From Promethearchaeota archaeon (GTDB taxonomy: Archaea; Asgardarchaeota; Lokiarchaeia; Sigyniarchaeales; SOKP01), in assembly GCA_048938025.1 (NCBI GenBank), contig JBHLMP010000046.1:1-31195 (forward strand): 31,195 bases of DNA, in the 5' to 3' direction. The notes under the pieces were generated by a model that was not told the DNA's origin, made no database searches, and was given only the letters and a program-made list of their open reading frames with translations. Shown piece after piece: positions 10,756 through 26,950 of this stretch. The translations under genes were made by a program, and so were the position numbers. Each line of letters opens with the position of its first letter. The first letter of the stretch is position 1.

Positions 10756-12645
10756 ATGTATAGATTAAAGCAACCTTCTCGCCAAATACCGGGAATAATA
10801 TCATATATGGAATTCTTCTCTTCTAAAAGATTAGCTTATTCTATATTCCTTGGTATGCCAATTCTTTTAGGTCTAATCTCAATGATACTCAATAACATAT
10901 TTATTGAAGAAATAGATTTTTTATATTTCATTATTTTTGTAAGTCTTTTTTTATTGATTTCTGGAACTGGGTTTGTTTTTACACTTGTATTTTATTCTAG
11001 AAAAGCTCCTATATTGCGAGCACCACCTAATGGTTGGTCGATTCAAATGAACACCTTCTTTAATACAATTATAGGACTCACTTATCTTTTAGGTCAAATT
11101 TTAGCTATTATTTTAGAGAATGGCACTTTTCGTTACGTTTTTTTTATGTTGGGGACTATTATATCTTATATAATCGCTTTTGTTATCTATTTTTCATTTA
11201 CAACTGTCGGGCGTCCTGGTAATATAATATTAGCACTTTTACAACCTATTTCCGCAATCCTTTTTTATAGTGTTTACACTTTTCAATTATCTTTTGACTT
11301 TTTCATCAGGTCGTTAATCTTTTTTGTATCATGTGCGCTTCTATTTGCTATTCCTTATAGAAGGGGTTTATTTCAAGTAAGCAATGTATATAAAGAAGCA
11401 ACAGGAATGAGTGGTTACCCATTCATCAGAGCTTTCATATTATCTATGATGACAGATGGGAATGATGACTTGCTTGAGAAATATTTCGATAAAGTAGGTG
11501 TAGAATCACATATAAAATTACAATATCTACTCATTAGAAGTGTAAAGACTGAAAGAATTAAAGGATTATTTATTATTCCAGATGTTCATTTTGGCCCCTT
11601 TAAAACATGTGGGTCTTCCGATTTACCTGAACATATCTATAGGGAATTTAAAGATATCCCTGGGACAACAGTTTATCACACTGCTAATGATCATGCTCAA
11701 AACCTTACTTCACAAAAATATGTGGATAAAATAATAGATAGAATAAAGCTAGATATTAATGAAATAAAATTGAATTCAGAATTAGAATGGTTAAAAGAAG
11801 TTAGTGATTTTTCAAGGAAAATTTCCAATAGCGCGAAACTTCTTGGAATAAAAATAGGAGATATTCCATTAATATTTATTACCAGGCACCCTCTCCCTTC
11901 TGATGATATTGAAGCTAATGTTGGAGAGCGAATTAGAGATAACGCAAAAAAATTGGATTATCGTGATATCATTATTATTGATGCTCATAATGCTATTATT
12001 GGAGATGAAATTTTAATCAAGAAAGACTCAATTGAAGCAAATGATTTAATTAATGTCTCGAGAAAATTTTTAAAGAGTAGTATAATAGAAAATATGCAGA
12101 AATCTCTAATGTTTTATGGTGTTGCTAAAGATCCATTGAAGGAATTTACAGAAAAAGAAGGAATTGGGTATGGAGGTATTGTGGTTCATCTATTTAAGAA
12201 TTCAAATACAAATCAAAAAACAGTATTGATCAATTTCGATGCAAACAATGCTTATATAGATATTCGTTCATATCTCTTGAATTTACTTCAAAATAGAGGA
12301 ATAGAGAAAGGAGAAATAACAACTTCTGACAGCCATACTGTTGCAAGGCAACTAACAAGTAGAGGTTATTCACCTATAGGTGATAAAATAAAAATTGATT
12401 ATATTCTAGATAAAATAGATTTCTTACTCCAAGAAGCAGAAAATAATTTAGAACCAGTTGAGTTTTATTATAATGATTCAATTGAACATCACATTAAGAT
12501 TTGGGGAGATTCCAATTATTTTAATGCTATTATGGATACTCTAAAGGAATGTATTAAAGTATCTCAAAATCTTTTAACATTTAGCCTCATTGTTCCCACA
12601 TTTTTTTCACTTGTATTATTATTGTTTTTTAATATAATATTATGA
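10756..12645 (+). CDS. DUF2070 family membrane protein (predicted lipid hydrolase, neutral-ceramidase-like)
   Basis: N-terminal TM block followed by PDVHFGPF, HxxxxH, IDAHN, FDANN and TSDSH, with a C-terminal TM. Confidence 0.88.
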   Translation: MYRLKQPSRQIPGIISYMEFFSSKRLAYSIFLGMPILLGLISMILNNIFIEEIDFLYFIIFVSLFLLISGTGFVFTLVFYSRKAPILRAPPNGWSIQMNTFFNTIIGLTYLLGQILAIILENGTFRYVFFMLGTIISYIIAFVIYFSFTTVGRPGNIILALLQPISAILFYSVYTFQLSFDFFIRSLIFFVSCALLFAIPYRRGLFQVSNVYKEATGMSGYPFIRAFILSMMTDGNDDLLEKYFDKVGVESHIKLQYLLIRSVKTERIKGLFIIPDVHFGPFKTCGSSDLPEHIYREFKDIPGTTVYHTANDHAQNLTSQKYVDKIIDRIKLDINEIKLNSELEWLKEVSDFSRKISNSAKLLGIKIGDIPLIFITRHPLPSDDIEANVGERIRDNAKKLDYRDIIIIDAHNAIIGDEILIKKDSIEANDLINVSRKFLKSSIIENMQKSLMFYGVAKDPLKEFTEKEGIGYGGIVVHLFKNSNTNQKTVLINFDANNAYIDIRSYLLNLLQNRGIEKGEITTSDSHTVARQLTSRGYSPIGDKIKIDYILDKIDFLLQEAENNLEPVEFYYNDSIEHHIKIWGDSNYFNAIMDTLKECIKVSQNLLTFSLIVPTFFSLVLLLFFNIIL

Positions 12646-12742: not shown

Positions 12743-13465
12743 ATGGCGTTAGAAGCTCTAGATATTGTCAATGGAATTTTTAGTCTTATTTTTGTTGCAA
12801 TCTCATTATTAGTTGGTTTTATTATCCTTTCGAAATATTTTCAATATAGAGAAAGAATATATTTTTTAGTTGGGTGTACATGGATCCTCATATCTGAACC
12901 TTGGTGGCCAAGTTCTCTATCTTTTCTAATAGCAATAGCTAATGATGTAGGACTTTCATCTCAAATATATTTTTTAATTGGTAACCTATTTGTCCCTGTT
13001 GCTATAGTAATTTGGTTGATTGCTTTTACAGAATTTTTATATAAAGAAAAGCGTAAACTTATTCTAATGATATTTGGAATTTATGGAATACTATTCGAAA
13101 TTATTTTTTTCATCCTTCTATTTTTAAATCCTGAATTAATTGGAGAATTAAATCCTCCTGTAGATGTAAATTATAAATTCTTTATTATGGCATCTTTAAT
13201 CTCTTTTTTATTAATTGTTGTGATTAGTGGTTTCTTATTTGCCAATCTATCTCTAAAATCTGATGACCCTGAGGTTAAATTAAAGGGGAAATTACTTGTT
13301 GTGGCTTATATATCGTTTTCTATTGGAGCTTTGTTAGATTCATCAATTCCTTTAAACGAAATTACAATCATTATAACAAGAATAATTTTAATATCAAGTG
13401 CTATTGAATGGTATGGCGGATTTCTCTTACCTAATTGGATGAAAAAAATATTGAAGAAAAAATAG
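12743..13465 (+). CDS. Stand-alone 7-TM membrane protein
   Basis: 240 aa with seven hydrophobic segments counted by eye, a basic C-tail and no soluble output domain. Confidence 0.75.
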   Translation: MALEALDIVNGIFSLIFVAISLLVGFIILSKYFQYRERIYFLVGCTWILISEPWWPSSLSFLIAIANDVGLSSQIYFLIGNLFVPVAIVIWLIAFTEFLYKEKRKLILMIFGIYGILFEIIFFILLFLNPELIGELNPPVDVNYKFFIMASLISFLLIVVISGFLFANLSLKSDDPEVKLKGKLLVVAYISFSIGALLDSSIPLNEITIIITRIILISSAIEWYGGFLLPNWMKKILKKK

Positions 13466-13526
13466 AATCCTATATACTTTTCTTATTTTATTTTTTCAGA
13501 TTGGTCTGATATGATATTAGCATAAT

Positions 13527-13542
13527 ATATCGATATTATCGA
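13527..13542. promoter_or_regulatory. Overlapping palindromes upstream of the GTPase operon
   Basis: ATATCGATAT (13527-13536) and TCGATA-T-TATCGA (13530-13542), about 60-75 nt before the ATG at 13603. Confidence 0.4.
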
Positions 13543-13602
13543 GATTCATATTCTAAGTTTCTTCATTTTTTCTTAATAAATAAATCTATAAAAGAAATAT
13601 AA

Positions 13603-14130
13603 ATGTTAAGTTCTGAAATAGATAAATTAGTGAAGATAACATTAGTCGGAGCACCAGCCGTTGGGAAGACAACAATGTTAAGACTGTTAGCGAAAGAAAC
13701 TATTGATAAATTATACCTCCCCACTCATGGATTAGATCTTAAGACTGTTAAATTTGAAGATTATTACCTAAGGGTATGGGATCTCGCAGGACAGAACTCT
13801 TATCTGCGAACCTATTCAAAAGATTACCTTTTAGGCTCCGACATCATTTTTATTGTAACTGATTCAAGTCCTCGAAATGTATTAAACTCAAGAGAATTAA
13901 TTAATTATGCGTGTCACTTCGTAGGTAAAGAATGCCCAATTATCGCAATTGCGAACAAACAAGATTTAGTAAAAACTGATGGTCGAATGGATGTTAAAAG
14001 GGTTGAAGATATACTTCATGTAAAAACATATGGACTTACAGCTATAAATCCTTCAGAACGCATAAGATTAATGAATATTATTAAAAAAGAATTAGATCAA
14101 ATTGTAATAAGAAGGGGGTTAAAAGAATGA
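13603..14130 (+). CDS. Small GTPase, Arf/Rag-like (Ras superfamily)
   Basis: G1 GAPAVGKT, G2 PTHG, G3 WDLAGQ, G4 NKQD, G5 TA. Confidence 0.92.
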   Translation: MLSSEIDKLVKITLVGAPAVGKTTMLRLLAKETIDKLYLPTHGLDLKTVKFEDYYLRVWDLAGQNSYLRTYSKDYLLGSDIIFIVTDSSPRNVLNSRELINYACHFVGKECPIIAIANKQDLVKTDGRMDVKRVEDILHVKTYGLTAINPSERIRLMNIIKKELDQIVIRRGLKE

Positions 14131-14690
14131 ATTTTAGTGAAAATGAACTTTTTGGGGTAGCATTAATCGGATTTGATATGATTGATGGACCATTTCTCAA
14201 ATGGAAAAAGGAATACAATTCTGACAATAATCTAGTGAAATTAGATGATTTTGCTATGAATTTTTATTTAGCATTTCGAGGTGGAAATCGAGGTAAAGAT
14301 AAGAAAACTCCAAGGGCAATATTATATGACAATTTCTATATAGTTGCTTTCCCTAAAGATTTAGAACTATGCTGTCTATTCATGAAACCTAAAGGAATTG
14401 ATAATAATATAAAGCAATTAAATAAGATTGCTACAAGGATTATCAGCGAAATGGAATTAAATGAAGAAGAGGATTCTCAATCTGAAAATTCCGATGAAGA
14501 TACTATAGAAGAAATTAAAAGATTAATTTCAAATCTACTAAATGGAACAGAAATGTCAACCCCAGAATTAAGAAGATATTTCAAGTTAAGTAATTCTCAG
14601 ATTTGGAAAGTAATGTCGGATTTAGAGAATTCTAAAAAAATCAAGCGAACACGAAAAAAAGGAAGAACCATCTTATGGACTGCTATTTAG
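14127..14690 (+). CDS. Longin/uDENN-like domain fused to a C-terminal winged helix-turn-helix
   Basis: N-terminal VALIGFDMIDGP (hhhxFDxxxGP hairpin typical of longin/uDENN), an acidic linker, then MSTPELRRYFKLSNSQIWKVMSDLENSKKIKRTRKKGRTILW (wHTH pattern). ATGA overlap with the GTPase stop. Confidence 0.7.
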   Translation: MNFSENELFGVALIGFDMIDGPFLKWKKEYNSDNNLVKLDDFAMNFYLAFRGGNRGKDKKTPRAILYDNFYIVAFPKDLELCCLFMKPKGIDNNIKQLNKIATRIISEMELNEEEDSQSENSDEDTIEEIKRLISNLLNGTEMSTPELRRYFKLSNSQIWKVMSDLENSKKIKRTRKKGRTILWTAI

Positions 14691-14697
14691 TAATTCC

Positions 14698-14714
14698 TTT
14701 TTTTTAGCTTTTTT
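14698..14714 (+). terminator. Oligo-T terminator
   Basis: T8 (14698-14705) and T6 (14709-14714) directly after the stop at 14690, between convergent genes. Confidence 0.5.
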
Positions 14715-14721
14715 ATTTATA

Positions 14722-15528
14722 TTATCTTGTCCTGTGTTGCCAATTTTTTAATTTGGTATAGTATCTTGAAAACATGATATGGCAGATATCAGGTAAATCT
14801 TTATCTAAGTTATTTACAGTAATATATCTTAGTATATGGTTAATAGTAAAAATCCCTAAAAATTCAATATGATAACTACTGATTTTCTCTAAATTATCAC
14901 CTGAATAAGAGATATCCAATCCTTTTTGATCATTGTACTTAATTTCAGTTAAAATTTTTGGAAACACTTCTCTTTTAATTCTCCAACCTTCAGACGTTTT
15001 CCAGATTTTTGCTCCAAGAAAAGATTCCAATTTGTCTTTATCTACTTCCTTCAGCAATTTGAAAGGTTCGCTTCTTTGTATCAGGACTTTTTCCATCATT
15101 TCAGTCTTTTTACTATACGTCTTTTCGAATGGTGTTTTACCCTTAATTTGTCTTTCTATAAAATCCATTACAATATCAATATAAGTAGCACTATCTTCTC
15201 CAGGAACCCACGTAGCATGTTCCCCTGAAAAATAAAACTTAAATCCTGCTTCAATTTCATCACCAAATTCATTACCAAAATAGGAGTAAGCCATATGTAT
15301 ATTCACTTCAGGAAACATTTGAACTGTTATGGTCCAATCTTCACTCAAACCGATATTTTCAATTTGCCCTCCCAAATCTTCATGGATAATTCTTTCTAAT
15401 CTATCATTATCTAAATCTATAAATAAATGATATTTTGCTTTACTAATCTCTGTCAATTCTTTTTCATGTGGTCCTCTTACACCTGTAGCATCAATTTGGC
15501 CTACTGTCCAATATTTTCGTTTTGACAT
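14722..15528 (-). CDS. Hypothetical protein, DUF3786-like, internally duplicated
   Basis: LGGQI...DWTITVQMFPEVNIHMAY...DEIEAGFKFYF resembles DUF3786. A second copy reads LGAKI...GWRIKREVFPKILTEIKY. Confidence 0.6.
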   Translation of the reverse strand: MSKRKYWTVGQIDATGVRGPHEKELTEISKAKYHLFIDLDNDRLERIIHEDLGGQIENIGLSEDWTITVQMFPEVNIHMAYSYFGNEFGDEIEAGFKFYFSGEHATWVPGEDSATYIDIVMDFIERQIKGKTPFEKTYSKKTEMMEKVLIQRSEPFKLLKEVDKDKLESFLGAKIWKTSEGWRIKREVFPKILTEIKYNDQKGLDISYSGDNLEKISSYHIEFLGIFTINHILRYITVNNLDKDLPDICHIMFSRYYTKLKNWQHRTR

Positions 15529-15711: not shown

Positions 15712-16959
15712 TTACTCCATAAATTGCTTTATAACACGTTCTAATTCCTTTTCCTTAATGAATTTCTTTTCAGTGATTATGGAGTGAACTTTTTTCATAA
15801 TCAGAGGTAATAATTTCTCACAATTTTTAATTCTCATTTGCTCACATTTCATTTTGACAGCATCTCCATGTAAGGTTGTAGGACCAAAAATGATATTCTC
15901 TTCTTGACCCACTATTTCGGGTCTATAAGGCGTAAAACACATCCAATACTTATCCTTCTCTAAAGCACTCATTACATGCAACTCACTTTCATGTAAGAAA
16001 GTATTTCTCCCTACTATTGGCTTATTATATGGCAATGGTACACCTGATACCTTTTCTATAAACTTACAGAAATCATAAAGCTTAGATATTTCGATTCCCG
16101 TATCAACTCCATAGAGCATTTCTAAAGCTACAACAACTTCTTCAAAAGAAGTGTTTCCTGCACGATCTCCTAGTTTATTTGCTACTAAATCCATATAAAC
16201 TGCTCCCTGCTCAATTGCTGCAATTGTAGAAGCCGTACCTAACCCAAAATCATCATGGACATGTATTCCAATAGGGATATCTTTTACTAAAGGCTTAATT
16301 TCCTTAATCAAATAAGAAATAGCCGGAATATTACAAGCACCAACTGTATCATATAACATTACCATATTTGCACCAAACTTTACACCTTTTTCGATTGCCC
16401 TCTTTAAAATATTAATATCCGAACGTGTAGCATCCACACAATCTAATATTGCCTTGCCTCCTAATCGCTTTATTCTCTTTAAAATAGATGGAATTAGACT
16501 AATCATAACATCAGGAGAGATATTTTCATCACCTGTAAACAATTGAAGTTGCCACTTAGTTAAAACAATTCCAAATCCAATATAATCTAATTTGGCTTCT
16601 AATGATTTCTTGATTTCATCAGTCCAACGCGAGGGATTTGAGCTTAAATGAGAATATGTTCTTAATTTTAACCCTAATTCTTTAATTTGATTAGCAAGAT
16701 CCCATTGATCCTGAACTTGACCAATGTAGCCACAATCAATATGCTCTACACCTAGTTCTTCTAATTTTTCCACAATTTTAATTTTCTGATCTAGTGTATA
16801 GTACACACCTGGAGTTTCTTCTCCTTCTCTAATGGTAGAATCTCGAACATAAACTCTTTTTGGGAGATTAACTAGTTTTCTTACCTCATCAGAGTAATTT
16901 AAAGGTGATAACCACCATTTTTCATTAAACCACTTTGTTTTTTCTTCCATAACTTCCAC
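15712..16959 (-). CDS. DRE-TIM metallolyase (homocitrate/isopropylmalate/citramalate synthase family), no C-terminal regulatory domain
   Basis: DSTIREGEETPG, YDTVG, HVHDDFGLG, LGDRAGNTSFEE and PIVGRNTFLHESELH. The true start may be the ATG at 16950. Confidence 0.9.
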   Translation of the reverse strand: MEVMEEKTKWFNEKWWLSPLNYSDEVRKLVNLPKRVYVRDSTIREGEETPGVYYTLDQKIKIVEKLEELGVEHIDCGYIGQVQDQWDLANQIKELGLKLRTYSHLSSNPSRWTDEIKKSLEAKLDYIGFGIVLTKWQLQLFTGDENISPDVMISLIPSILKRIKRLGGKAILDCVDATRSDINILKRAIEKGVKFGANMVMLYDTVGACNIPAISYLIKEIKPLVKDIPIGIHVHDDFGLGTASTIAAIEQGAVYMDLVANKLGDRAGNTSFEEVVVALEMLYGVDTGIEISKLYDFCKFIEKVSGVPLPYNKPIVGRNTFLHESELHVMSALEKDKYWMCFTPYRPEIVGQEENIIFGPTTLHGDAVKMKCEQMRIKNCEKLLPLIMKKVHSIITEKKFIKEKELERVIKQFME

Positions 16960-17001: not shown

Positions 17002-18213
17002 CTAGCCTATAATCTCTTTTGCTATATCTTCAAGTTCTTTTTCAGAAATGAAATTTTTAGTTTGAAGGCTTTCCTTAATTTTAGCACGTATGATATCTAT
17101 ATGGTTATTGGTTGGATGTAGGTCCATTTTTTCCAATTTTGCTTTTATTGCCCTATCTTGAAGGGTAGTTGCTCCAAATATCAGCCTTCGTGTCTGTCCA
17201 ACCACATAAGGTTGAAATAATTCCCAAGTAACCCAATTACCGAGTAAAATCTGCTCAACGTGTAAATCAGATTCATGTATAAAACAATTTTTTCCTACAA
17301 TAGCTTTATGAGATTGCAAAGGGGTTTTGCTATATTTTTCGATAAGTTGAGAAACCTCCATAATTTTTCCTAATTTTAAATTTAGATTAAATCCATATAA
17401 AATCTCAAGAGCCATTATAACTTCTTCAGTTGCCGCATTTCCTGCTCTATCTCCCAAACCATTAAATACCACATCAACAACTTCAGCTCCTCCTTCTACT
17501 CCTGCAAGGGTAGTTGCCACGGCTAATCCAAGATCATTATGCGTATGGACTTCTATGGGTATATCTTTGACAATATTTTTAGTAAAAATGACTGTTTCTT
17601 TAAATGCTAATGGTAATGCGCATCCGTTTCCATCATAAACCACCACCCGATCTACTCCAGCATCAACAGCAAGTTGTAAAAATTTTTCCCAAAATCGTGG
17701 AATAACACGACCAGAACCAAAAGCTACATATGCTCCCTGAGATTTTGCATATTCTATACCTTCGGTTATTCTTTCAAACACTTCTTTCTTAGTTTTTAAG
17801 GTGGGACTGGGGACAAGTAAGAAATTAATAGAATCTGCTTCTGAAGCCAAGATATCATCGACTTCTTTTTTTACATCTTCCACATACATTCTCGCGTGCG
17901 ATGATAATTTCATTTTTATGCCTTCTTTTTTGAGAACTTTAAAAGTGTCGGCATGTTCTTTAATTCCTGCGGCATACCCTACTTCAATTTCCTTTATTCC
18001 CATTTCTTCCAATAATTTAGCAATTTCAACCTTTTGGTCAATTGTAAAGTAGGTTCCTGGTGTCTCTTCACCCTCTCTTAATGTGTCATCTTTAACAATT
18101 ATTTTTTCTGGCAATTTCATCTGAGTTCTTACTGATTCTGCAAAATTCCATTCATAACTCCACCAACGTTGTTCTTTATCCATTCTCATTGATGCCCAAG
18201 CATTTAACCACAT
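17002..18213 (-). CDS. DRE-TIM metallolyase paralog (homocitrate synthase-like), no C-terminal regulatory domain
   Basis: DDTLREGEETPG, HTHNDLGLA, GLGDRAGNAATEE and AIVGKNCFIHESDLH, with a GGGGTGA RBS. Confidence 0.9.
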   Translation of the reverse strand: MWLNAWASMRMDKEQRWWSYEWNFAESVRTQMKLPEKIIVKDDTLREGEETPGTYFTIDQKVEIAKLLEEMGIKEIEVGYAAGIKEHADTFKVLKKEGIKMKLSSHARMYVEDVKKEVDDILASEADSINFLLVPSPTLKTKKEVFERITEGIEYAKSQGAYVAFGSGRVIPRFWEKFLQLAVDAGVDRVVVYDGNGCALPLAFKETVIFTKNIVKDIPIEVHTHNDLGLAVATTLAGVEGGAEVVDVVFNGLGDRAGNAATEEVIMALEILYGFNLNLKLGKIMEVSQLIEKYSKTPLQSHKAIVGKNCFIHESDLHVEQILLGNWVTWELFQPYVVGQTRRLIFGATTLQDRAIKAKLEKMDLHPTNNHIDIIRAKIKESLQTKNFISEKELEDIAKEIIG

Positions 18214-26329: not shown

Positions 26330-26950
26330 TTAAAGAATTTTATCATAATCTAATTCATGAGAATCCATTATTTTTTTGGTCATTTCTTTAAAACTATGTA
26401 GGATATTTGTATTTTCCTTTGAAGAGGTCTTCAAAAAATCTTTTTCATCATGTTTATCAAGGAAATTCTCAATAGTTAATTCATCAACTTTATGCTTTTT
26501 ATTATTTTTTTGAACCAAATCAAGTTTAGTTCCAATTAAAACTTTTGGGCGCTCATGAAGATTATGTTCAATTAAATTATCATACCACCAATCTAATTTA
26601 ATAAGGGTTTCCATTTTTAATAAATCAAAAACCAAAAAAATGCCATTCGCCCCATTAATATAATACTTAAATAACTTCTTAAATTGTTCTTGCCCCCCAA
26701 AATCCCAAATTGAAAGCCTTACTTTGTTTTTATTGCCTCTTACTATTATAGGGATGTCATAGGTATAAAAATCTATTCCAATGGTCAATTGAGTGTTTGC
26801 CTCAAATGTATCAAAACATAGCCTCCGCGCAATACAGGTTTTTCCTACGCCGCCGTCACCAATGAGACAAATTTTGAAAACGTATGCGATTTTTGTTTCA
26901 AAAGAACGTCTTTCTTGTTCCTGAATGGTATCATCTTCTCTTTCAAACAT
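26330..26950 (-). CDS. Rab-like small GTPase
   Basis: FKICLIGDGGVGKT, TIGIDF, IWDFGGQEQF, LVFDL, GTKLD and TSSK. No C-terminal prenylation Cys. Confidence 0.93.
   Translation of the reverse strand: MFEREDDTIQEQERRSFETKIAYVFKICLIGDGGVGKTCIARRLCFDTFEANTQLTIGIDFYTYDIPIIVRGNKNKVRLSIWDFGGQEQFKKLFKYYINGANGIFLVFDLLKMETLIKLDWWYDNLIEHNLHERPKVLIGTKLDLVQKNNKKHKVDELTIENFLDKHDEKDFLKTSSKENTNILHSFKEMTKKIMDSHELDYDKIL

Follow-up and report, generated by a model that had tools for sequence, protein, structure and literature searches.

The window analysed here is a 31,195-nucleotide (nt) contig (JBHLMP010000046.1, labelled C57 in this work) of a Promethearchaeota archaeon whose genome assembly comprises 3.52 Mb in 88 contigs, at 29% G+C. 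It contains a gene for an Arf-like small GTPase followed at once by a gene for a second protein, here called the partner, in which a longin-type N-terminal domain (N-domain) is joined by an acidic linker to a C-terminal winged helix-turn-helix (wHTH) domain. We tentatively favour the view that the pair is an autoregulated GTPase and longin-wHTH switch: a G-protein module of Loki-type Asgard archaea whose two genes are translated together. This study established how the genes are arranged, which folds their products have, that the pair is conserved, and that a 34-nt block upstream of it is both conserved and unique. We infer that the two proteins bind each other, that the wHTH binds the block and that the nucleotide state of the GTPase alters DNA binding. 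The preference for a switch follows from the strict coupling of the two genes, the fold and hairpin motif of the N-domain, and the upstream block, taken together.

Conservation of the gene pair

The GTPase gene (175 amino acids, aa; 13603-14130, + strand) and the partner gene (187 aa; 14127-14690, + strand) overlap by 4 nt in the motif ATGA, the partner ATG starting at 14127 and the GTPase TGA occupying 14128-14130. A first-pass annotation of the window had described this overlap, and it had divided the partner into an FDxxxGP hairpin domain, then an acidic linker, and finally a basic wHTH at the C-terminus; all of these features were recovered. Both open reading frames (ORFs) are taken to be real genes and not chance ORFs, because a database search found 498 relatives of the partner at E≤1e-3, most of them at 74-94% identity, and the same threshold gave matches in 175 of 400 genomes of the phylum. 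Named relatives were labelled Promethearchaeota or Lokiarchaeota (Asgard archaea). The protein family is narrow, with 28 representatives at 50% clustering among 1.84 billion proteins. The partner was found in 122 of 134 genomes of the window's own taxonomic family, in 13 of 14 and 3 of 4 genomes of families in the same order, and in 7 of 7 genomes from three further families of the class. Its distribution in other classes was patchy.

In all 49 other loci examined (L002 and L004-L051), the two genes were adjacent and on the same strand with the GTPase directly upstream, and this held down to 26-35% partner identity. The spacing between them, measured on first-start ORF calls, ranged from -41 to +15 nt; the genes overlapped in 39 of the 49 loci, 17 of which had the 4-nt overlap. 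Flanking genes were common only to loci within the family and were not conserved outside it. The gene pair described in the first-pass annotation is a conserved one. Such strict coupling across deep divergence suggests that the two proteins act together in fixed proportion. Fused forms of the pair were not detected among the longer proteins searched, which is weak evidence.

Five more distant loci (L052-L056) matched the N-domain only. One of them, L053, encodes a 131-aa partner (1447-1842, - strand) in which the longin domain is followed by a run of about 10 arginines instead of the wHTH, and the GTPase gene is still directly upstream. A further protein, P0145, likewise ends in an Arg/Lys run. 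The other four loci (L052, L054, L055 and L056) encode longin-only proteins with no GTPase gene within about 1.5 kb on each side, L052 being cut by a contig end. Divergent from the longin or GTPase genes of L053 and L052 are ORFs of about 110 aa (L053:2388-2729, + strand; L052:997-1320, - strand) with Cys pairs near the end; the two look alike and, by eye, resemble a wHTH with a zinc ribbon.

The small GTPase

The best Pfam model for the 175-aa protein was Arf (3.3e-18; 66.2 bits, cut-off 22.3), followed by Roc (57.3 bits) and Ras (47.5 bits). It also exceeded the cut-off of the NCBIfam model small_GTP (45.8 bits, cut-off 42.5). Among proteins of solved structure, a profile of its orthologues scored best against Arl3 (6.3e-23), Arl2, Arf1 and Arl8 (E-values from 6e-23 to 1e-20); three entries titled "Arf GTPase" or "GTP-binding protein" were also retrieved, with E-values near 1e-20. 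Among 20-21 orthologous sequences the P-loop residues G16, G21 and K22, T41, D60 and G63, and N118-K119-Q120-D121 were invariant. The catalytic glutamine (Q64, following DxxG in a WDxxGQ motif) was present in at least 90% of the sequences and replaced by His in 2 of 21. About 10 residues precede the first β-strand.

The first-pass annotation had called this protein an intact Arf/Rag-like GTPase. The intact G motifs and the Arf score uphold the first part of that label, and the Rag part was not sustained: the 175 aa make up a GTPase domain only, without the C-terminal roadblock domain of Rag proteins, and the score on Pfam Gtr1_RagA (21.8 bits) fell just below its cut-off of 22. Since the protein has no extra domain, we classify the GTPase from its sequence as Arf-like, not Rag-like.

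Small GTPases are numerous in this genome, in which 84 ORFs matched the GTPase profile at E≤1e-2. The GTPase of the pair scored 254.6 bits and its three closest paralogues 130-136 bits; none of these three has a comparable partner gene adjoining it. A paralogous GTPase of 714 aa (134 bits; contig C20:33186-35330, - strand) has a long proline-rich tandem repeat after its GTPase domain. The window itself contains a second small GTPase gene (26330-26950, - strand), which is Ras/Rab-like (Pfam Ras, 122 bits).

Fold of the N-domain

No Pfam or NCBIfam model matched the partner above its cut-off, and its fold was therefore sought by structure prediction with AlphaFold2. The whole partner was modelled from a 20-row alignment (mean predicted local distance difference test score, pLDDT, 76.7). 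The N-domain (residues 1-118; 14127-14480, + strand) was also modelled alone from 24 rows that included the distant longin-only relatives (pLDDT 81.1, predicted template modelling score 0.67). In the latter model, strands at residues 8-17 and 21-29 are followed by a helix at 39-51, strands at 64-66, 71-77 and 80-86, and a long helix at 92-119, which starts at residue 95 in the whole-protein model. Both models have the order β-β-α-β-β-β-α, which is that of longin domains, and the domain lacks the N-terminal helix of the roadblock type.

The N-domain model was compared with 48,161 representative chains using VIA-align, and the best 50 matches were inspected. The highest scores were for LAMTOR (Z 8.2; root-mean-square deviation, rmsd, 2.5 over 75 aligned residues) and Dynein LC7 (Z 8.1), followed among others by AP-3 sigma (Z 7.7), MglB (Z 7.2), BLOC-3 (Z 7.0), Mon1-Ccz1 (Z 6.8), the C9orf72-SMCR8 entry 7o2w_A (Z 6.4; rmsd 4.3 over 83 aligned residues) and a GATOR1 chimera (Z 6.3). 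About 47 of the best 50 were GTPase-associated roadblock or longin proteins and about three were unrelated; the list also contained a histidine-kinase sensor domain and a profilin at Z 5.9. With the whole-protein model, longin-type subunits of TRAPP reached Z 9.4. The Foldseek list for the N-domain was likewise almost purely roadblock and longin, with no match under E 1e-3 (best 2.5e-3); it included LAMTOR2, the MK-D1 roadblock protein, AP-3 sigma, zeta-COP, a Loki longin (8yqg), GATOR1/SEA chains, DENND1B and CPLANE. A longin or roadblock fold, as supposed in the first-pass annotation, is supported by the structure searches. As Z values of 7-8 are a common best score in VIA-align, the case for a longin is built on the uniformity of the list together with the strand order, and the place of the domain within the superfamily is not fixed. 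Roadblock proteins score equally well (LAMTOR), so within the superfamily it is the strand order only that points to a longin.

Sequence searches reached little beyond the family itself. The N-domain profile gave only one chance-level match, to MarR, among the sequences of the PDB, and a word-index search with it returned its own family only, as unnamed or automatically named entries. In the ESM Atlas, the best cluster for residues 1-118 (0.78) consisted of Promethearchaeota proteins of 141 aa, 19% with Pfam NPR2. This score is below a level that shuffled proteins attain a third of the time, and the match, the one link to NPRL2 by sequence features, is a lead only. Pfam NPR2 had no match in the whole genome. 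Pfam Folliculin had four sub-threshold matches, which are uninformative since this model also fires in 8 of 14 control genomes.

An improbable alternative is that the N-domain is an α/β-sandwich sensor for a small molecule or peptide, the partner being a one-component transcription factor and the GTPase merely a gene that it controls, not a protein that it binds. Autoregulation from a site beside the regulator's own gene is the norm for one-component regulators, and the single copy of the upstream block agrees with this arrangement, as do the common range of the N-domain Z values and the sensor domain and profilin among its matches. Against it, some 47 of the best 50 structural neighbours are proteins associated with GTPases. 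In addition, a 4-nt overlap in which a regulator lies downstream of its target seldom persists across class-level divergence, whereas here the genes were paired in 49 of 49 loci, and L053 keeps the GTPase gene directly upstream of a longin gene even without a wHTH.

The hairpin motif

The annotated FDxxxGP motif, F16-D17-x3-G21-P22, is located in the hairpin between the first two strands of the N-domain. D17, G21 and P22, together with P62, were invariant in all 24 N-domains compared, at identities down to 19%. F16 (at least 90%), Y47, F50, G53, F70 and F85 were near-invariant in the same sequences.

Longins of GTPase-activating protein (GAP) type, namely FLCN, NPRL2, SMCR8 and C9orf72, are reported to be marked by a GP motif that lies within the second strand or immediately before it and that other longins lack (PMC12290439). 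In C9orf72, W33-D34 are essential and G38-P39 lie nearby, these residues being essential or central to the catalytic pocket (Traffic 2025, PMC12290439). Some Asgard longins combine a GP motif with an arginine finger, and which GTPases they partner is unknown (PMC12290439). In the partner, G21-P22 was found at the loop before strand 2 in 24 of 24 sequences, so that the GP sign of GAP-type longins is present, and the spacing F16-D17-x3-G21-P22 is that of W33-D34-x3-G38-P39 in C9orf72. We regard this likeness as a resemblance of motif and position, as opposed to demonstrated homology. Fold and motif together suggest that the N-domain is the part of the partner that faces the GTPase.

The same sequences bear on how the domain might act. 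At position 63, which may or may not be equivalent to the arginine finger, Arg occurred in 13 of the 24 N-domains, Lys in five and Leu, Met or Gln in six; R51 was not conserved. With no arginine invariant, a classic arginine-finger GAP is not supported. An MglB-like GAP is still compatible with the sequences, as MglB acts as a GAP without an arginine finger.

The linker and the C-terminal wHTH

The acidic linker is legible in the translation at about residues 108-127 (14448-14507, + strand), and appears disordered in the models, with pLDDT below 50 at residues 115-122. It leads to the wHTH (residues 124-187; 14496-14687, + strand), which was predicted at a pLDDT of about 90 and has a wing rich in Lys and Arg. 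In VIA-align it matched PH1932 and DNA-bound NolR at Z 10.6 (rmsd 2.5-2.6 over 62-63 residues), and the neighbours at Z 9-10.6 included these two, Z-alpha, MarR and ArsR-type proteins. When a profile of the full-length partner was compared with PDB sequences, the wHTH part only was matched (AdcR, E 1.6e-3). Pfam HTH_11 matched 9 of 20 family members (best 7.3e-8), and other members matched DeoR (1.3e-7), the ArsR-type HTH_5 (1.1e-7), GntR or MarR.

Winged helices that bind protein or RNA were also among the structural neighbours of the wHTH. The cullin WHB, ESCRT-II and Rpa2 WH domains scored Z 8.7-9.6. We weighed, as a rather unlikely alternative to the switch, that the partner is solely a dedicated GAP, guanine nucleotide exchange factor (GEF) or docking platform, like MglB, C9orf72-SMCR8 or GATOR1. 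The wHTH would then mediate dimerisation or bind other proteins, as it does in NPRL2/NPRL3, ESCRT-II and cullins, and the upstream block would serve another regulator. The conserved pair and the longin-type fold apply equally to this explanation, GAP longins are reported to be distinguished by a GP motif (PMC12290439), and the part of PMC3521125 that was available presents the wHTH domains of NPRL2/3 without mentioning a DNA-binding role for them. One lineage has a run of arginines in place of the wHTH, so that a sequence-specific reader is not essential. On the other side, wHTHs of the family match the prokaryotic DNA-binding models HTH_11, DeoR, ArsR, GntR and MarR at E-values down to 1e-7, no arginine of the N-domain is invariant, the pair is accompanied by no further regulator gene, and a conserved direct-repeat block occurs in single copy exactly at the promoter of the operon.

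The RNA-binding SelB and the Z-DNA-binding domains were also among the wHTH neighbours, at Z 9.8-10.4. These matches, the Lys/Arg-rich wing and the replacement of the wHTH by an arginine run in L053 and P0145 would suit a basic C-terminus, either wHTH or poly-arginine tail, that acts as a non-specific tether to a polyanion (the nucleoid, RNA or ribosomes, or acidic membrane lipids) and so places the action of the GTPase. We consider a tether very improbable, as it leaves the conserved, phased, single-copy promoter block unexplained.

The upstream repeat block

The block, an observation added here to those of the first-pass annotation, occupies 13518-13551 (+ strand) within the 137-nt spacer that precedes the GTPase gene, roughly 51 nt ahead of the GTPase start codon. 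We regard it as a candidate operator for the wHTH protein, made of three units of about 8 nt, beginning at about 13521, 13532 and 13543 and thus spaced by 11 nt. Taking the window's block as reference and leaving aside L012 and L017, in which the upstream DNA is cut off, at least 23 of its 34 positions were identical in 23 of 29 loci of the same family, at a nearly fixed distance from the gene. Across loci the block ended 38-62 nt before the called GTPase start. Shuffling gave 18.2 ± 1.2 identical positions (960 shuffles, maximum 24), and 17 loci were above every shuffle. An earlier control, which used tiled windows of the same loci, was set aside as biased by coding composition.

A weight matrix built from the 21 distinct blocks outside the window contained 29.6 bits. 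Its self-similarity peaked at a shift of 11, indicating three units of about 8 nt placed one helical turn apart, and its middle unit reads GATATTAT. The block also contains an inverted pair of 7-mers (13522-13528 and 13533-13539). When both strands of the whole genome were scanned with the matrix, the block scored 42.2 bits and the next site 18.5 bits, the weakest of the training blocks scoring 25.8 bits. The block is therefore single-copy in this genome. A wider regulon was considered and rejected: of the next seven best sites, five lay inside ORFs of at least 100 aa. With a looser three-unit score applied to 21 loci outside the training set (19 from outside the family and two from other genera of it), eight reached 0.05 or less against 1000 composition-matched shuffles. 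L053, in which the paired partner has no wHTH, had no such block (score 0.895).

Downstream of the block is an A/T-rich, TATA-like box (13572-13581, + strand), read from the sequence and centred about 26 nt before the GTPase ATG. The same or a similar box was seen by eye at the equivalent place in most loci of the family; the sequence between block and box was not conserved. In archaeal promoters the TATA box follows a -26 rule, and the position of the box before the ATG suggests that the GTPase gene is probably leaderless or nearly so. A phased, conserved block that occurs once in the genome, at the promoter of an operon encoding a wHTH protein, is most simply explained as that protein's own operator. 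This would fit the DNA-binding half of the idea put forward in the first-pass annotation, in which nucleotide state might control a DNA-binding protein.

A proposed autoregulated switch

In the switch that we favour, the Arf-like GTPase would cycle between GTP and GDP, and the partner would dock on it by way of the longin-type N-domain, with the invariant Asp-x3-Gly-Pro hairpin facing the nucleotide pocket, as in longins of the C9orf72, SMCR8, FLCN and NPRL2 type. The N-domain would read or alter the nucleotide state as a GAP, a GEF or an effector. The wHTH would bind the three repeats, spaced by 11 nt, that lie a short way upstream of the operon's TATA-like box, so that transcription of the pair, and perhaps of targets not yet seen, would respond to the state or amount of the GTPase.

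Several observations weigh against this switch. The structural scores of the N-domain are only moderate (Z of 8.2 or less; best Foldseek E 2.5e-3) and do not separate longin from roadblock, and the 24 N-domains had no match to the Pfam longin, NPR2 or Folliculin models at E≤10. None of their arginines is invariant. The wHTH fold also serves in binding protein, RNA and Z-DNA, such domains being among its structural neighbours, and the window's own wHTH fell under every Pfam cut-off (HTH_11 E 0.024; 15 bits against 25). A block found once in the genome leaves the switch with no visible output besides itself. Outside the family its detection was weak, 13 of the 21 loci being not significant, and, A/T-rich in a genome of 29% G+C, it could be the site of another factor. 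Because related genomes are not independent, the block counts overstate their support. No contact between the two proteins was seen in computation; a joint prediction with both alignments, GTP and Mg, made without controls, gave scores of 0.16 and 0.06 (mark 0.32) and weighs neither way.

Transcript features and neighbouring genes

A G-rich stretch resembling a Shine-Dalgarno sequence (14114-14119, + strand) is located within the end of the GTPase gene, 7 nt before the partner ATG, and may serve the translation of the partner. Right after the partner stop, a T-rich stretch (14696-14716, + strand) is a putative transcript end, shared with a convergent gene that ends at 14722. Together with the TATA-like box, these features suggest that the pair is expressed as one short, probably leaderless, bicistronic transcript. 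In the metatranscriptome run X1, 5% of the sampled words were present, and a single 222-nt contig covered 14193-14395 with six differences, which is not proof of transcription and has no bearing on the transcript ends or on the parts left uncovered.

The convergent gene (14722-15528, - strand) encodes a 268-aa protein that belongs to no Pfam or NCBIfam family. Each of the 30 other same-family loci that include that side has this gene at the equivalent position, with 60-90% identity. Upstream of the pair are genes for a DUF2070 membrane protein (10756-12645, + strand; 298 bits) and for a 240-aa multi-pass membrane protein (12743-13465, + strand). The latter was beside the pair in only 14 loci of the family, DUF2070 being directly upstream in others. 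Beyond the convergent gene, two tandem HMGL-like genes (15712-16959 and 17002-18213, both - strand) are of the homocitrate/isopropylmalate synthase type, and the second has an HCS_D2 domain.

Comparison with known systems

The pair resembles C9orf72-SMCR8(-WDR41), a longin-based Arf GAP, in that a longin is paired with an Arf-family GTPase, and in the aromatic-Asp-x3-Gly-Pro hairpin with the spacing of W33-D34/G38-P39 (PMC12290439). Where C9orf72-SMCR8 is a heterodimer of two large DENN-type proteins with a WD40 subunit, the pair has a single small protein. The partner lacks the DENN/d-DENN part and carries a wHTH, and it has no invariant arginine, unlike SMCR8, in which R147 is the finger; C9orf72 itself has no finger. 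Searches of PDB sequences and Pfam found no sequence-level match between the systems.

The order of an N-terminal longin followed by a wHTH recalls NPRL2 and NPRL3 of GATOR1 (SEACIT), the Rag GAP. The first-pass annotation had attributed this architecture to both proteins, and PMC3521125 so describes them. The GP motif is reported in NPRL2 as well (PMC12290439). The differences are that the GTPase of the pair is Arf-like and without the Rag C-terminal roadblock, that the partner has one wHTH instead of three, and that Pfam NPR2 matches neither the partner nor anything else in the genome. According to 10.1101/2020.10.19.343400, NPRL2-like longins are abundant in Asgard archaea and are fused there to varied signalling domains.

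MglA-MglB, which is found in bacteria and archaea and usually as an operon, likewise consists of genes for a small GTPase and for a regulator of the roadblock/longin superfamily, and MglB was a structural match at Z 7.2-9.1. Unlike MglB, the partner has the longin-type order, no N-terminal helix, a long C-terminal helix and a fused wHTH. Unlike the MglA-MglB system, the pair has a GTPase that scores best as Arf, and a conserved promoter element. In the actinobacterial conservons (CvnA-D; MfpB-E), the DUF742 protein MfpC is reported to be a GEF that has a predicted DNA-binding domain and may also act as an effector (PMC11343762), which recalls the partner. Roadblock and HTH are on separate proteins in conservons and fused here, and the present lineage is archaeal. 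Conservons also have four core genes, including a histidine-kinase-like sensor, whereas no kinase gene adjoins the pair.

A conserved Asgard operon of LAMTOR1-like, Rab-like GTPase and DENN genes (Liu et al., 10.1101/2020.10.19.343400) also combines a small GTPase with regulators of the roadblock superfamily. In that operon the GTPase is Rab-like, it has three genes with a DENN protein, and it contains no wHTH. We found no description of an Arf-like GTPase/longin-wHTH pair or of a longin-wHTH fusion in the literature, most subscription papers being outside our coverage. The supplements of Liu et al. (asCOG, 10.1101/2020.10.19.343400) may already list the partner family, for example under an NPRL2-like longin asCOG.

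Implications

The native regulators of Asgard Arf-like GTPases have not been identified (PMC11914678), and the GTPases that partner GP-motif longins are unknown (PMC12290439). In the cultured Loki strain, GTPase genes reportedly do not, as a rule, share operons with roadblock or longin genes, which makes it hard to match them (PMC10933270). The locus described here offers one concrete case in which an Arf-like GTPase and a GP-motif longin protein are paired, with strict conservation and translational coupling. Because both proteins are small (175 and 187 aa) and should express readily, and the candidate DNA site is a defined 34 nt, the questions of GAP, GEF or effector function and of transcription can be tested at the bench.

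A bolder version of the switch, which we think improbable, is that the partner is a GTPase-gated transcription factor through which an Arf-family GTPase talks directly to DNA, and that it is a minimal surviving relative of NPRL2/NPRL3-type subunits with a C9orf72-type hairpin. If this were true, the winged helices of eukaryotic nutrient-signalling GAP complexes would have begun as DNA-binding domains, and the operon would identify, for an Asgard Arf-like GTPase, a native regulator or effector.

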